Part shown: one piece after another, positions 5,698 to 13,555 of the stretch
Position numbering within the stretch: position 1 is the first letter of the stretch
Layout: every line of letters starts with the position of its first letter
Source: Ylistrum balloti
Lineage: Eukaryota
Direction: 5' to 3'
NCBI RefSeq assembly: GCF_031769215.1
Contig: NW_026782189.1
Span: forward strand, 1-64,000
Length of the DNA: 64,000 bases
The notes under the pieces: model-generated
What the model was told of the DNA's origin: nothing
What the model saw: only the letters and a program-made list of their open reading frames with translations
Databases searched by the model: none
Program-made: the position numbers and the translations under genes

Positions 5698-7868
5698 TCA
5701 ATCAAAATTCACAATAGAACCACACAAGTTGGTCAAACTACAGCAAACAGTAACAATTTTGTCTACAGCTGGAACATCTCCTGTGCGCGCAATCAAATAG
5801 TCTACAGGTAAAGTATCTGAAAGAATTGTAAACTTGTTCCTAACCAGTCCAATCACGCGTTCCACATGAATGCGGACATGTGCAATGTTTCTTGTGGATT
5901 CTACCTCAAGTGCTGACAACTGGCTCTTTCCTTTAGTAAAACTTGGTATTTTAACCTCCGCACACATTACACCGACACTTTCCTGAATGTCGAAACCACG
6001 GTCAGCAAGTACGATATCTCCTGGAAGAAGTTTCTTTAAAAAGCCACTGTTTTCCACAATATACTTGTCACTACTGCGTCCTCCCCAAGCATTTGACAGA
6101 TAGGTTATACATCCTTGAGGGGCTATTCCAATTAATATTTTTACAGTATTATGGTGTTTATACGAAGACCATGTCTTTGCTCTTGCAAGAAGATTTGAAG
6201 GCCGCTCAATAAAGATTTCAAAACAATCAATGATAACAGCGACTTTCAAGCCAAAATGCTTCCTGAATTCCATGGGCATTGAAAGTCTCAGTTCCTCTCT
6301 CTCTGGCCAGTAAACAAACTCTCGCAGTCTAATGTATAAAACGTCCAATACAGTTAGGAATGTCCTTGATGCGGTGGGCTGTGAGATATTGAAGATATAT
6401 CCAAGAAACTGAAGGGAGAGTGTAAGTCGCAGTTTCATCAGAGTCATAATAAATCTCTGAAACTTTGAGAATGTCACACGGCCGCTATCTGGAATGTAAT
6501 CTTTCACAAAGTCAAACACAGTCATCAAAGTTAAAAATCCTGGAAGCCCTGTGAAGCAGTTTACCTTCTTGTCATTGTCTCTGAATGCATCCTCACTGAA
6601 TATCTGCCCTTCCAGGATATGTTGCCTTAATGTAAGGTTTTCTGTTGTCCGCTCCTGACACTCTGCATTTAACTTCTTCAACAATTCTTCCTTTTCCTGA
6701 CTTCTAACCTCCATTAGGTCTTTCGCTGATTCTGCAGGGAAGAGAGGTCCTAATTTGAAGAAGTGAACAGGTTTGTCATCTTTCTGAAGCCAATCACACA
6801 CCTGTGGCTGACTGTCTTGGACACTACATGTGGATAAATCCATTAAAGCTCTGGCAGCTAAATGCTGTTTCCGCTTGTCATCACGTTGGTTTGCCCGTTG
6901 GAAACGCTCACTCTGGCTGCTTGGAGTTGTTGGAGATGTCAACTTCCTATTCAACTTCAATGAGGGGACCCAGTCAGGATTTGCTTTATCAAAAATCTTT
7001 GATGGTTTACCTGCAAAAAAAAAAGAAAAATCTTAAAAAAAGGAATGGGATTAAAAATAATGAACTGGTTACAGAACTAAATACTTTTTTTTTCATCACA
7101 CTATTTATAGTGAGACAGGCCTGATAGTGTATGTATGTTACATGTACTTGAAGTTGACCTGGTTTTTATATATGATAAAAGAGATAATATAAGGACATGT
7201 TATGATCAAAGTATATTATCACGGACTTATAAATATAGATATAAGTCCGTGGTATTATTGATATCTTTAAAAGAATGCATCTACTACATACGTTGTAGTT
7301 ATACAAGATCGTACGTAACTACTAGTCGGTACTAGGCCTAGAGCCTAAATAAAGATATAAGATTATTTCCGGTACAGGACTCGTATGTTGTTCGAAAGCA
7401 CCACTAGGAATAAATCACTTCGAGTGAAGTAAAACACGTCATATAAATATTGGATAAAACAATAAGTTCAGATTTACAGGTATTTGCACCAAATGCCATG
7501 TTACAAAACTATCGCATGCTGTACTGTACTGTACGGTGTCTCATTATAAATGTGATTCGCATTATTAGTGCACGTTTCCAAAACTCGTGTGACTTTAAAT
7601 ATTTTATGTAGCTAAGTAGTAAATGAAATCAATTGATGTCAGTTTATCTACCTTCTAAAAAATGATCCGAGCACACTTTAGAATGGGTTGATGGCACGAA
7701 GTCCTTTCTGCCTATGGCCGCGATCCATTTTGTTCTTCTCTCTCTGCTGAGTTCTTCTGTCCATTTGTCCTCGTGGAGTCTTACAGTAGGGAATCCATAA
7801 AAACCACGCTTTGTTCCCCTGTCGTTCGCCCGATTCGTACAGCCGTACACTACGCAGGTGTGAACCAT
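5698..7868 (-). CDS. Harbinger/ISL2EU transposase (THAP + HTH_Tnp_4 + DDE_Tnp_4), about 509 aa
   Basis: Exons 7868-7652 and 7010-5698, GT-AG phase-1 intron. THAP: [10 protein letters not shown]...W...VCSDHF|GKPS...NPDWVPSL. Catalytic triad motifs IIDCFE, LADRGF, HVERVIG. No stops or frameshifts. Confidence 0.92.
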
Positions 7869-8016
7869 CGTCTGTTTGTTTACCAATATATTCAAATGTG
7901 CTTCGCTCGAATGACTGATTATTATCGCTTGACCCACAATATGGCGGAGGTCGCAAGATGCCCGGATGTGTGACGTCATGGGAATTCTATCTATTCTTTA
8001 GTTTCGTATTTTGACT

Positions 8017-9171
8017 GCGGTTTGACGATTTACAGAATCGGGCAGGATCGGACAGAATTGGGCAGAATCGGACTAGAATAGTGCCGTTTTAATGATTTTT
8101 GTGAATTTCTTTTGCATTGATATCATCATATGTTACACATTGTGAAAGGTTTTTAAGGAAAAATGAAGACGCATTACATAAAACACTCATTTCTGATTTG
8201 GTCGCGCAAGACCGAAAGACGATTTACAGGATCGGGCAGAATCGCGGTAGAATGGGTCCTACTTAAACCAGCCCGCAGACGAGGAATCTTAAGCCCCGCC
8301 CACTTCCCGTGGTGTTAATATGAAGAACCATAGACATATAATATATGGAAGAACTTAGCACTGCTGTCGCCGGGATGAAAAAATACCTGTGCTGTATGAA
8401 TAACTGCATAAATATATATAAAATAAATGTTAAATAAATCAACTTGAAATACAATTATATTAAATAATTGTTAATATCAAATGAATATTGACCAGATAAT
8501 TGGCTTACAAAAATATACCATGACTCATCATGGCGGGCGGCGCTGCTAACACGCTGTTACGAGAGGAAAATCGTATCGCGTATAACTTTCTTAATCAGCG
8601 AGAAATCACTTCGAAATTTTACAGATGGGATTAATTAAGTAAAAATAACCATTATAAAACTTTATTTCTTAACTATCGTATCCACAACGCCTGCGGGCGT
8701 CTAAGTATACTTGCGGGCGTCTGCGGGCTGGTTTATGCGGTTAGACGATTTACAGAATCGGGCAGGATCGGGCAGAATCGGACTAGAATAGTGCCGTTTA
8801 AATGATTTTCGTGAATTTCTTTTGCATTGATGTCATCATATGTTACACATTATGAAAGTTTTTTAGGGAAAAATGAAGACGTATTACATAAAACACTCAT
8901 TTCTGGTTTGGTCGCGCAAGACCGAAAGACGATTTGCAGGATCGGGCAGAAACGGGCGGTTTATATGTAGAATTTGGACATTAAATTGTTTTTAGTGTAA
9001 TTATTGTGGTGTTAAATGATATCAGTTAAAACATCATAATTTCATATCGATCAACAACGGCCAAAAAAAGTATTATGTTCTTTTCACATAACGTAATGTG
9101 CCGCACTGGACCGAAAGACGATTTGCAGGATCGGGCAGAATCGGGCGGTTTATATGTAGAATTTGGACATT
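8017..9171 (+). repeat. Dispersed direct-repeat complex: a ~220-bp block twice and a 63-bp block twice
   Basis: 8017-8244 is nearly identical to 8737-8954. 8920-8982 equals 9109-9171 with one mismatch. Shared motif GACGATTTRCAGRATCGGGCAG occurs at least five times. Confidence 0.9.
8264..8735. mobile_element. Small non-coding TIR element (MITE-like)
   Basis: Perfect 18-bp inverted repeats TAAACCAGCCCGCAGACG (8264-8281) and CGTCTGCGGGCTGGTTTA (8718-8735). The outer TA may be a TSD. TGCGGGCGTCT is reiterated inside the right end. Confidence 0.7.
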
Positions 9172-9382
9172 GGTTGATTTGTAAATTCATAGGTTAATTA
9201 TAAAATATATCATAGAAAATTGATAATACCTTTTTGTGCTGTGTTAACAATTTTGGAAATCCCCCGCACCCCCACTATAGTAAAGAATAGTGACTATACA
9301 CTTGGTAATAATGTTGTCGGCAGCATGTGAAATAAGTCGGGGATGTTTCCCTTTCAGTTTTATTATTAAGTGATATAATGTA

Positions 9383-9502
9383 GAAAGCCATCTGCTACGG
9401 TGATAATGTCCTGATAATGCTGCTAATTAAGTAACATTATCAGGGATATCTCACCGCATTGCCCAGGTCTCGGGATCGTGGACCCTGCTTTCATGGAGAC
9501 CT
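9383..9502 (-). ncRNA. HDV-like (delta-like) self-cleaving ribozyme
   Basis: Minus-strand fold: P1 AGGUCUC(9502-9496)/GAGACCU(9471-9465); J1/2 CAU; P2 GAAAGCA(9492-9486)/UG[G]CUUUC(9390-9383); P3 GGG/CCC; L3 UCCACGAU; P1.1 CC/GG followed by GCAA; long P4 UGCGGUGA..CCUGAUAAUG/CAUUAUCAGG..UCACCGUA; J4/2 G-C-A-G-A with the catalytic-equivalent C at 9394. Confidence 0.85.
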
Positions 9503-9560
9503 TTTTGGGGGGGGTGGGGGTGTTTTTTTTTTTTTTTTTTTTTTTATTTTGTATTTATGT

Positions 9561-9899
9561 CTACCTGTACCCAAACAACACTCTACAAATATCATGATAA
9601 TACTTCGCTAGTCCTTTGTCATTGAAGTGGACAAGGTCTGTCGTATACATCGCTGGATACGGAATGTTCATTTTTACTACACTGTCCTTGAAAATCTTGA
9701 ATAGTTTCTTGTTCACTGACGACTGCTGGCGTTTGAAATGTTGCATGGATAAGCCACCCCTGAATTTACCCCGCGCTACAATTTCCTGAATTAGAACTGT
9801 CTTCACGCCTGACGCTTCAATAACATCTACTAAAAGCGAGTTGGCGCCATGATAAGAAGGTAGTCTGGTGGCTTGGTTTGAATTATCAACTAACAGCAC
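9561..9899 (-). pseudogene. C-terminal fragment resembling an SGNH/GDSL hydrolase
   Basis: 112-aa open frame with a block-V-like motif DLVHFNDKG.AKYY and an upstream VLIQEIVARG...VNKKL pattern. No N-terminal GDS block and no usable ATG at the start. The stop is followed by an AATAAA running into A23 (9545-9523). Confidence 0.45.
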
Positions 9900-12119
9900 T
9901 TATAAACAAACAAAACTTACAAACAGAACATCAATTTTGCTTTAATCCTTGTCGTTGTGGCAAGATCGTCTTAATATATAACATCACTTTACCTCATTAG
10001 ACGTCACAAAATTGGACTGTTCGTCCCACGCGCACACCCGCCGATATGACACTTTTTCAGGTTTTTCACACCCACCGCCATGACACTTTTTCAAGTTTTT
10101 GAAGATAAAAAGTTTGCGATTCGTAGGCAAGGTACATTTGGTGCTCATGGTTTATGAATAATATATTTTTAATACTGTACTGATCATGATGTTGACTTTG
10201 TTATAACTTGTATTTTTTGTCTTTTAGTTTTATTTGATTAAGGTTGATTGTGCTGATTTCTCAAGGTTTGTTAATATGTATCAAAGTTCCTTGGAATGAA
10301 AATATTCCTTCAAACAAAACGCGTATAAAAAAACAAAATATTCATGTTTATAATTATCAATTAACTAGAACGAAATATTTCCATAACATATTTATGGTGA
10401 CATTGTCTAATGCATTGGAGATCAGAAATAGTAGTAGCTATAGTATAGTGAAAGACAATATATTATAGTTTTAGTCGGATTTGCAAAGGCGATGCTTATA
10501 TGTTTAACAAGTTTTCATTATTAAAACCAGAATGTTCTCTCCAACCGTTTTCATTTCTCTTTGCTATTGAGAGTTTTCGTTCTGTTAATTAACAAATCAT
10601 AAAATGCTTTAGAGCCTTCAGTTTTTAAGCAATGTTAACTTGTCTTGCTAGCAAAAAGAGAGTAAAGTTATAAACACTGTTCTGTTATACATTATAATTC
10701 AGAAAATCAATCTAAATATATCTGTTTAAAGAAAAATCTTATTACAGTCACAAAATATTACATAAACTGCATTTTTCTGGAACCCCCTCCCCCTAGAAAA
10801 TTTCTAAACATTCAAATACTTGATCATAATCAATTTCTAACAGTTTTCGAAAGAACTTCCACATCTTGCAGAATTAATATAGTTAAAAAGACGAAAAAGT
10901 TTTTCGCCAAATCGGGACCTTTCGACTGCTTCCACGTAAAAGACGGTGTCTAACGGAAAGTGACCAAAGTTCACCAAGGTTAACCCGGAAATCAGGTACA
11001 TCGGAGAACAAACATGCTCTCATCTTGAATTTTCAAATTGTAATTTTTCAACGAGGTGTTTGTTATGTTTTTCAAACCATTACAGTATATATTTTTTACC
11101 AGAGTTTGACTTTCAAGACTTTGCGGCAAAAATGTAGTCATAGTTTTACTGTTTGACAGCACTGAAAATACATCGTATTTGGTTTCCATGAAAGGTCTTC
11201 TGACCTGAAAGTAAGGGTATACCACCCTGGAATCCAAGGCGTAGCATGCCACACCCACAATTTTCTACGAAGTTGATATTTATCCATATTAGCAGGTCGT
11301 TATTTTTCAGAATCTGATATACCCAAGTCAGTAGTATAGCATGCAAGTAAGTGAATCGATCTTTTAAGTCAAATATAATCATATTAAAGATACTTTATCC
11401 CCTTGAAAGATCGACACTTTTACTTAAAATATACCAAGATAATGTTTTCCTGCATTGTATTTCTTTTATTTTTTATTCGTTCTTGTTTCAGTTATCCACT
11501 ATGTTCATCCTGCCTGGAACCATCATGACCATGGATGATCATTCGTATTCTTTGGTAATTAAAAAAAACTCACAATGGAAACAAACTTGTAATAGTATTA
11601 CATCACTGTGACAAGTGAGCTGGCTGGTACCATTTATTTATTTATTATTTATTAGAAATTCTACATGGGTAGCCTGAATGTGTGTATTTTATGTTTTTGT
11701 AACATATATATAATGATATGGAGGAATTCCAGCCTCATTACAATGGTATGTTAATTATATTCAAATTATATTAAACACTCTATGATGTGTACATTCTATG
11801 TCATAAGGAAAGGGCGTTAATAATACTCACATTACTTCTGTCCAACCCTTTCGTCTTTTGACTATGAACTATTTAAACTGGAAAGAGGAAAGGTCCAGTG
11901 GGAAAAACTAAAATATCAGAGAATTTCTTAACCGCATTTTTTAAAATTCATAGCAATCTTATACAATCCATGTATTGAATGAATAAAAACGCATAAACAT
12001 CCTTATAAATTTGCATATAACTGACAACAGATGTTGACATCCTGGGGTTATACAAAGAGCCTATAGAACTTACTCACATCAAATATTTGTTTACTTTTGC
12101 AAACAGAAGAGAAATTTTG

Positions 12120-12990: not shown

Positions 12991-13140
12991 TACTTTGAGA
13001 AGTTTATCAATTACGTGATATTTGCGGAATCAAAATATGTTTTTGATATCTATATTTAACAAAAAGTATCATTAACTTTCATGACACCAAAGAGATAATT
13101 CTCTGAAGCTGGGGACAGAGAGGGCTTAACAACAATGGAA

Positions 13141-13555
13141 AGTTCTCTCAAGCAGAAGGCAAGGATAAGCTTGACGCCAAAGGGAATCTTCTCTCAAGCT
13201 GAAGAGGTGGGCATAACCCCATAGGGAACTTTCTCTCAAGCTGAAGAGGTGGGCATAACCCCATAGGGAACTTTCTCTCAAGCTGAAGAGGTGGGCATAA
13301 CCCCATAGGGAACTTTCTCTCAAGCTGAAGAGGTGGGCATAACCCCATAGGGAACTTTCTCTCAAGCTAAACACAAGGGTAAGCAATAACACCAGAACAT
13401 TCCCCCAAGCTGAAGAGGAAATGGGCATGGGACCCAATAAACGTTCTTTTAAGGTGGAGGCAAGGACAGCTATCAACACAAAGGAAACATTCACCCAAAC
13501 TGACGACAAGGGTGGGCATAACACCAGAGTAACGTTCTCTCAAGCTGACGACACG
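13141..13555 (+). repeat. 42-bp minisatellite, about 3.5 exact copies plus degenerate flanking copies
   Basis: Unit TCTCTCAAGCTGAAGAGGTGGGCATAACCCCATAGGGAACTT, exact in 13190-13347. Explains the repetitive ORFs 13126-13524 and 13148-13348. Confidence 0.92.

Follow-up and report, generated by a model that had tools for sequence, protein, structure and literature searches.

The window analyzed here, a stretch of 64,000 nucleotides of the Ylistrum balloti contig NW_026782189.1, carries an HDV-like ribozyme fold on the sense strand of a partial SGNH hydrolase gene, 58 nt past the stop codon and behind an A23 tract and a C-run. The fold and both tracts are real, and their host is a Mutator-like (MULE) DNA transposon, not a retroelement. 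Related folds follow genes of five MULE families and one hAT transposase gene in this genome. The ribozyme probably makes the mRNA 3′ end of the SGNH gene, behind an A/C tail encoded in the DNA.

Results

A Complete HDV-like Fold behind an SGNH Gene Remnant

The HDV architecture is a nested double pseudoknot comprising P1, P1.1, P2, P3 and P4 (PMC4836649), and the window fold contains all of these elements in full (Table 1). The catalytic cytosine in J4/2 and the L3 residues U20 and G25 are present in all seven representatives, including the window copy, and the window fold has a folding z of −4.99. A strict pairing descriptor gives three distinct matches in 1,046,576 bases versus none in 960,000 shuffled window bases, and a relaxed version gives five, one of them doubtful, versus one in 1,046,576 shuffled bases. 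Descriptor matches at L092 and L270, which have long linkers and weak stems, were set aside. The Rfam HDV-clan models do not match the window fold at the gathering score or at E values up to 10; these models are bound to sequence. The cut-site pair is G1-U37 in six of seven representatives and A1-U37 in the window copy, position 1 being A in the window and G in the other copies and types. The fold is predicted to self-cleave. The order given in the initial annotation, in which the SGNH stop is followed by A23, the C-run, AAAA and then the ribozyme cut, is confirmed by the window letters together with the descriptor.

Table 1. Positions of the cassette, its fold and the adjoining sequence in the window
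Feature	Position	Strand	Basis or detail
Truncated left end of family A MULE	window, ~1.1 kb		broken 5′ of the SGNH part
Family A left terminus (CGGTTAG...) and ~190-bp subterminal repeats	8738..9175	+	terminus comparison, 7 other loci
Non-coding spacer, ribozyme to subterminal repeats	9176..9382	-	common to family A copies
HDV-like ribozyme fold	9383..9502	-	descriptor, folding, cross-family pairing table
P1	9502-9496/9471-9465		7 bp
P2	9492-9486/9390-9383		7 bp; 9389 bulged
P3	9485-9483/9474-9472		3 bp
L3	9482-9475		
P1.1	9481-9480/9464-9463		
P4	9458-9396		long
Catalytic-C position	9394		
U20; G25	T9482; G9477		
Predicted cut	between 9503 and 9502		
Predicted templated tail	9503..9560	-	5-nt spacer, A tract, C-run, short A run
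A23; C-run; then four A's	9545-9523; 9522-9507	-	window sequence
SGNH stop TAG	9563-9561	-	
SGNH/GDSL gene, C-terminal 92 codons	9561..9837	-	DxxH block and stop
Unrelated high-copy repeat piece, outside the cassette	9836..10443		copy comparison and depth

In fuller copies the gene is intronless and encodes an SGNH/GDSL hydrolase of ~175 aa; all four blocks (Ser, Gly, Asn and Asp-x-x-His) are readable among family A copies, and the window retains the last only. The window part matches P0001 at 73%. A 112-aa SGNH-like ORF had been called at 9899-9561. SGNH sequence accounts for 9837-9561, and the remainder, 9899-9838, derives from an unrelated repeat, so that the ORF is a chimera, with neither a start codon nor the Ser and Asn blocks. 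Both the 5′ half of the SGNH gene and all remaining element sequence have given way to this repeat. All 10 of the repeat copies tested match it at 89–93% and diverge at the junction, and depth in run X1 exceeds 12,000 over the repeat versus ~50–120 over the SGNH part. Loose contig ends at 8738/8739 in the same run support the element end at the other side. The window copy is a dead fragment that has lost its 5′ half, and any function would belong to active parent elements.

A Pfam search with the window ORF alone gives no SGNH match. A fuller copy matches Lipase_GDSL_2 (PF13472) at E 1e-5, below the cut-off, all four SGNH paralogues tested match PF13472 above it, and a family profile searched against the PDB finds GDSL proteins at E 1e-5. 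The SGNH identity that was proposed from the window ORF is established for the family through the fuller copy and the paralogues, and not by that ORF itself. Codon counts in family A (7 silent and 11 replacement among shared variants, 16 and 36 among private ones) are too few to show selection.

The L068 and L077 SGNH proteins match weakly to OSK, the RNA-binding domain of Oskar, in Pfam (E 0.004 and 0.09), and an ORF for a KptA/Tpt1 (PF01885) RNA 2′-phosphotransferase lies at L092:3880-4452 (C1079), 2.6 kb from an SGNH gene that ends in a stem-loop. The database protein P0040 is an SGNH domain fused to KptA. MULE transposase genes at L272:4334-7240 (C329) and L175:8198-9217 (C1081) carry a second SGNH domain at the N terminus and ULP1 and PHD domains at the C terminus.

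The Host Is a Mutator-like DNA Transposon

The window terminus recurs at seven other loci and, in the C705 and C211 copies, forms the right end as well, in inverted orientation. The C705 copy, 7.2–7.3 kb long, has both ends and a target duplication of 9 bp (8 bp on another reading); the C211 copy, shortened by deletion to 4.3 kb, has a perfect 8-bp duplication. The terminal inverted repeats (TIRs) measure 81 bp at 91% in C705 and several hundred bp in C211, and, in the related families described below, 45 bp in C and 57–71 bp in D2. Target-site duplications (TSDs) are also present at the D1 copies C254 and C950 and the D2 copies C104, C454 and C251. MULEs are described as making 8–11-bp duplications (PMC6446971), and those found here lie in that range; the truncated window copy has no readable one.

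The opposite strand of C705 carries a PHD exon (above the cut-off), an OTU-like frame (E 5.5e-4) and decayed transposase pieces. These pieces have no Pfam MULE match, and they match the C254 ORF (E 9e-17 and 2e-16), which is over the cut-off in a MULE family search and reaches 26.7 bits against 27.6 in another search. In relatives the MULE domain is over the cut-off in family C (C647) and D1 (C254 and C225), and it scores 33.8 bits in D2 (C329) and 43.9 bits in D3 (C249). In family A the PHD-OTU-MULE-type gene and the SGNH gene lie on opposite strands and diverge, each running towards one end, with the SGNH gene transcribed towards the left end. Judged by its sequence, the family A element fits the MULE description in PMC6446971.

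The window corresponds to C332, and of ten protein relatives looked up, the two that carry names come from bivalves. A search with window 9380-9900 gives 42 matches. The SGNH end, the A/C tract and the ribozyme occur together at eight loci, the window among them and one pair being near-duplicates, and all eight adjoin ~190-bp repeats and one terminus. This recurrence as a unit speaks against the chance juxtaposition of two insertions. Of the two readings that the initial annotation had offered, a terminal repeat or tandem junction of a Ngaro-, Penelope- or retrozyme-like element is not supported, as the unit sits inside a MULE bounded by TIRs and TSDs, once per end; an RNA 3′ end with a genomic A tail remains the best-supported reading, in a host that is not a retroelement. 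Inverted ends and TSDs were found, with no linked reverse transcriptase (RT) or recombinase: ~20 kb around each of nine copies contains inverted ends, one A-type fold per copy and no RT common to the loci. A link to Ngaro was considered and rejected, since the Ngaro-like element at C705 is what the transposon inserted into: its gag is interrupted, and a target duplication flanks the insertion.

The window holds further features. Positions 8250-8735 are a short, two-ended D1 MULE derivative that has no ribozyme and is wedged between two family A left ends (8018-8245 and 8738 on). The minus strand at 5698-7997 carries a Harbinger-type transposase gene (THAP plus DDE_Tnp_4) whose 444-aa frame is open, and 13126-13539 is a short tandem repeat with a ~39-bp unit and open frames.

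Related Folds Lie behind Other Transposon Genes

DNA, pattern and model searches recovered seven fold types in the genome (A, B, C, D1, D2, D3 and E), and the fold counts are lower bounds. Type A follows the SGNH gene of family A, and type B is found towards the opposite end of that family's deletion copies. In sister family C, type C follows the transposase at ~175–200 nt; type D1 follows the C254-type transposase, types D2 and D3 follow SGNH-MULE-ULP1-PHD genes, and type E occurs in another OTU-MULE family. For types C, D1, D2 and D3, ~175–790 nt separate the fold from the final ORF of the transposase gene, which is on the same strand. MULE-family sequence of at least 100 nt lies beside 37 of 40 ribozyme matches, and the other three share flanks with such a copy. 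Every fold that could be placed points towards the closest element end, which is 500–1030 nt away, and the non-autonomous copies C88 and C834 have one fold at each end.

Across the seven representatives, 118 of 119 stem cells are paired, a one-base P2 bulge is common to them, and two-sided changes occur at 11 of 17 positions, although the independent events are few because the representatives form two related lineages (A/B/C/E and D1–D3). These compensatory changes, amid wholly different flanks, point to selection on the fold between families. Among family A copies the ribozyme shows no better conservation than its surroundings, differing by 0.10–0.17 versus 0.18 in the flank, the mean pairwise difference of the spacer 9176..9382; a first alignment of 13 closely related copies had no two-sided change, and 392 of 500 shuffles reached its score. 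Conservation within the family neither helps nor excludes selection, because copies decay after insertion.

One new fold among 10 pattern matches is linked to a hAT element. It lies on the minus strand at L301:882-952 (C258), ~130 nt after a transposase ORF (PF05699, 59.8 bits) and behind an A-rich stretch; the one copy inspected is slightly decayed. Two further matches to the hAT end are at C14 and C80. Outside this genome, L278 (MOXF01000799.1), a metagenome-collection contig from another animal, has an intact fold that lies 250 nt past an ORF resembling a MULE C terminus. Its P4 differs and its similarity is restricted to the ribozyme; the MULE likeness of the ORF is weak (local profile E 7e-5), and a database search with the ORF gave no match. 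Viral contigs searched with two ribozyme patterns and two protein queries gave no match.

The ribozyme is not a general MULE trait. At 60 loci surveyed, out of 130 MULE matches, a clear fold is present at two, both in known families, and one more is doubtful; the control had no fold in 1,794,909 shuffled bases. No fold lies behind the transposase genes of C705 and C298.

The A/C Tract Is Variable and Specific to Family A

All six family A copies aligned have an A/C tract, with an A-rich length of 7 to ~90 nt. The A tract is slippage-prone, and in some copies it is too short for stable binding of poly(A)-binding protein. The A-C-A layout is confined to family A, and D3 and L278 are without an A-rich leader. 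In six of seven types the 50 nt ahead of the cut are A-richer than at least 97.5% of local windows, and six of seven representatives have AATAAA or ATTAAA at most 50 nt before the cut versus 0–20% of local windows. We do not claim a conserved poly(A) signal at this position, which is inseparable from A-richness and not common within family A: the AATAAA that had been noted in the window is indeed there, at 9548-9543, and is absent from that site in five other aligned copies. In D2 an AATAAA lies ~130 nt past the stop and 650 nt before the fold, and D2 mRNA may therefore end normally.

The Cassette Stands Where the Sister Family Has a Histone Stem-Loop

Most SGNH paralogues elsewhere in the genome have a histone stem-loop 18–53 nt past the stop, which matches both Rfam RF00032 and the host's own histone genes. 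Among 30 SGNH 3′ ends, 16 have the stem-loop, one has a decayed stem-loop, nine (seven loci) have the ribozyme, four have neither and none has both. A 25-protein tree pairs the ribozyme-ended SGNH of family A with the SGNH of family C, which ends in a stem-loop, as sister groups (support 97/94), and the two families share the same layout; stem-loop ends appear in two further branches, the deeper forks being weak. The most economical interpretation is a swap of end signals in family A. A single D2 element carries both, with a stem-loop after its SGNH gene and a ribozyme after its transposase gene.

Many non-histone intronless genes have a stem-loop and, downstream of it, a purine-rich element (among others L055:1993-2039, L075:1931-1975, L068, L069, L077, L211, L201 and L204). 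They include SGNH genes, a KptA/Tpt1-like ORF with two tandem hairpins (C474) and ORFs at C240, C272 and C508. At L084-L086 (C1237) stem-loop-ended SGNH genes occur in tandem units with non-LTR elements, and at L079-L083 (C86) several such SGNH copies cluster within 35 kb.

Discussion

A Probable Ribozyme-Made mRNA 3′ End

HDV-type self-cleavage leaves a 2′,3′-cyclic phosphate on the 5′ product. If, as we consider probable, the ribozyme forms the 3′ end of the SGNH mRNA, transcription would start at an internal two-way promoter and the RNA would be cut co-transcriptionally at the predicted site. The mRNA would then end in a templated A(n)-C(n)-A bearing the cyclic phosphate, needing no poly(A) signal, and the spacer 9176..9382 would fall on the 3′ cleavage product. 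The A tract would bind poly(A)-binding protein, and the C-run would shield the tail from deadenylation. The chemistry of self-cleavage is stated in general terms in PMC8782182. Reporter work describes comparable ends: an mRNA ending in A95-C7-hammerhead is translated, with C7 blocking deadenylation (PMC4888236), and an A32 tract before a ribozyme aids translation, a result given there as unpublished (PMC2702688).

More tentatively, and at somewhat less than even chances, we suggest a wider pattern, in which animal cut-and-paste DNA transposons of several superfamilies, MULE and hAT among them, may finish their mRNAs with exchangeable end modules that avoid normal polyadenylation, either an HDV ribozyme with an A/C tail or a borrowed histone stem-loop.

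A less likely account is that the cut acts against the transcript, destabilizing the mRNA or keeping transcripts from running on into the host flank and the inverted end, with the A tract as a slippery, unstructured leader for folding. Upstream flanks influence HDV folding, which counts for this account, as do the facing of the placed folds towards an element end 500–1030 nt away, the position of several folds 650–790 nt past the stop, that of D2 lying behind a possible normal poly(A) signal, and a hammerhead between stop and poly(A) signal that lowers Clec2 expression (PMC6765202). It leaves unexplained, however, why the cassette, 58 nt past a stop and lacking any poly(A) signal common to the copies, occupies the site of the sister family's histone stem-loop, a productive end signal. 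A structured cut end with a 5′-OH is, moreover, described as a poor entry for the terminating exonuclease (PMC2702688).

We regard it as very unlikely that the ribozyme instead sets the 5′ end of a non-coding RNA that spans the subterminal repeats and transposon end and guides or regulates the transposase. The fold would stay with the 3′ product, each one that could be placed points towards the element end, and the non-autonomous C88 and C834 keep one at each end, but the distance from fold to end varies, the downstream sequence differs between types, no guide-using nuclease is seen in the elements, and many short derivatives, such as the D1 piece at 8250-8735, have no fold.

Least probable of all, and largely refuted, is functionless retroelement debris, either a Ngaro- or Penelope-like repeat or a LINE or SINE 5′ head landed in an A-rich target: known eukaryotic HDV-like ribozymes do head non-LTR elements (PMC6765202), SGNH esterases occur in LINE ORF1 (PMC3905857) and the A run ahead of the fold resembles insertion into poly(A), but DNA, pattern and model searches found no copy outside DNA-transposon sequence, the folds are followed by no shared body, tail, RT or target duplication, compensatory changes keep the stems amid wholly different flanks, the upstream sequence common within families is transposon sequence, and in each family whose gene could be placed the fold follows that gene on its sense strand.

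Relation to Known Systems

The fold shares its double pseudoknot, core positions and mobile carrier with the HDV-like ribozymes at the 5′ ends of the non-LTR elements R2, L1Tc, RTE and Baggins and of SINEs (PMC6765202). In contrast to these, its host is a DNA transposon with no known RNA intermediate, and it lies downstream, with the coding RNA as the 5′ product. Theta ribozymes of gut phages also have an HDV-like fold, whose cleavage would give an upstream RNA its 3′ end, a task otherwise left to protein enzymes (PMC10879173); those are minimal and follow phage tRNAs, whereas the folds described here have a P4 stem and follow protein-coding genes of animal transposons. The F-Luc-A95-C7-HhR (PMC4888236) and A32-ribozyme (PMC2702688) reporters have the same succession of ORF, encoded A tract, C-run and self-cleaving ribozyme, but are man-made, with a hammerhead and a fixed long A tract, whereas the present cassette is natural, HDV-type and variable in its tract. 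The stem-loop behind the sister SGNH genes resembles the 3′ end of replication-dependent histone mRNA (RF00032), with a purine-rich downstream element at histone-like spacing; here it is found on non-histone genes of mobile DNA, and the window family has the ribozyme cassette instead.

Among MULEs, including the OTU-bearing MuDR-6_HM and the PHD-bearing Rehavkus, the inverted ends, 8–11-bp duplication, MULE-type transposase, extra ORF, and OTU and PHD domains have counterparts (PMC6446971), but the available part of that survey does not mention a ribozyme, SGNH or esterase. A second MULE survey (PMC13359780) mentions neither ribozyme nor SGNH. The Texim genes of fish Helitrons are likewise SGNH hydrolase genes on an animal DNA transposon, a likeness by description only; the transposon class differs, and the abstract names no ribozyme (PMC4021074). 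In the accessible portions of the ribozyme literature, HDV-like ribozymes are listed in retroelements and introns with no mention of a DNA transposon (PMC6765202), ribozymes are mentioned solely for Penelope-like elements (PMC6431247), and a 2026 preprint on ribozyme discovery mentions neither DNA transposons nor MULEs. The literature searched contains no report of ribozymes in MULE or hAT elements, and supplementary tables, Repbase or Dfam may list copies. The ribozyme class is known; its setting here and its likely role we did not find described.

Implications

Eukaryotic HDV-like ribozymes have been understood as 5′-end tools of retroelements. Folds kept with compensatory changes behind DNA-transposon genes, together with the swap with a histone stem-loop, point to a role at the mRNA 3′ end, and they provide a testable natural counterpart of the ribozyme-ended mRNA reporters. 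They also add compact natural ribozymes of 69–120 nt that Rfam misses, and suggest that mobile DNA of invertebrates has resorted repeatedly to ends other than poly(A). If the wider pattern suggested above holds, these would be natural, translated eukaryotic mRNAs whose ends are made by a ribozyme, and transposons could express their genes free of the host's poly(A) control, germ cells or early embryos being possible settings.
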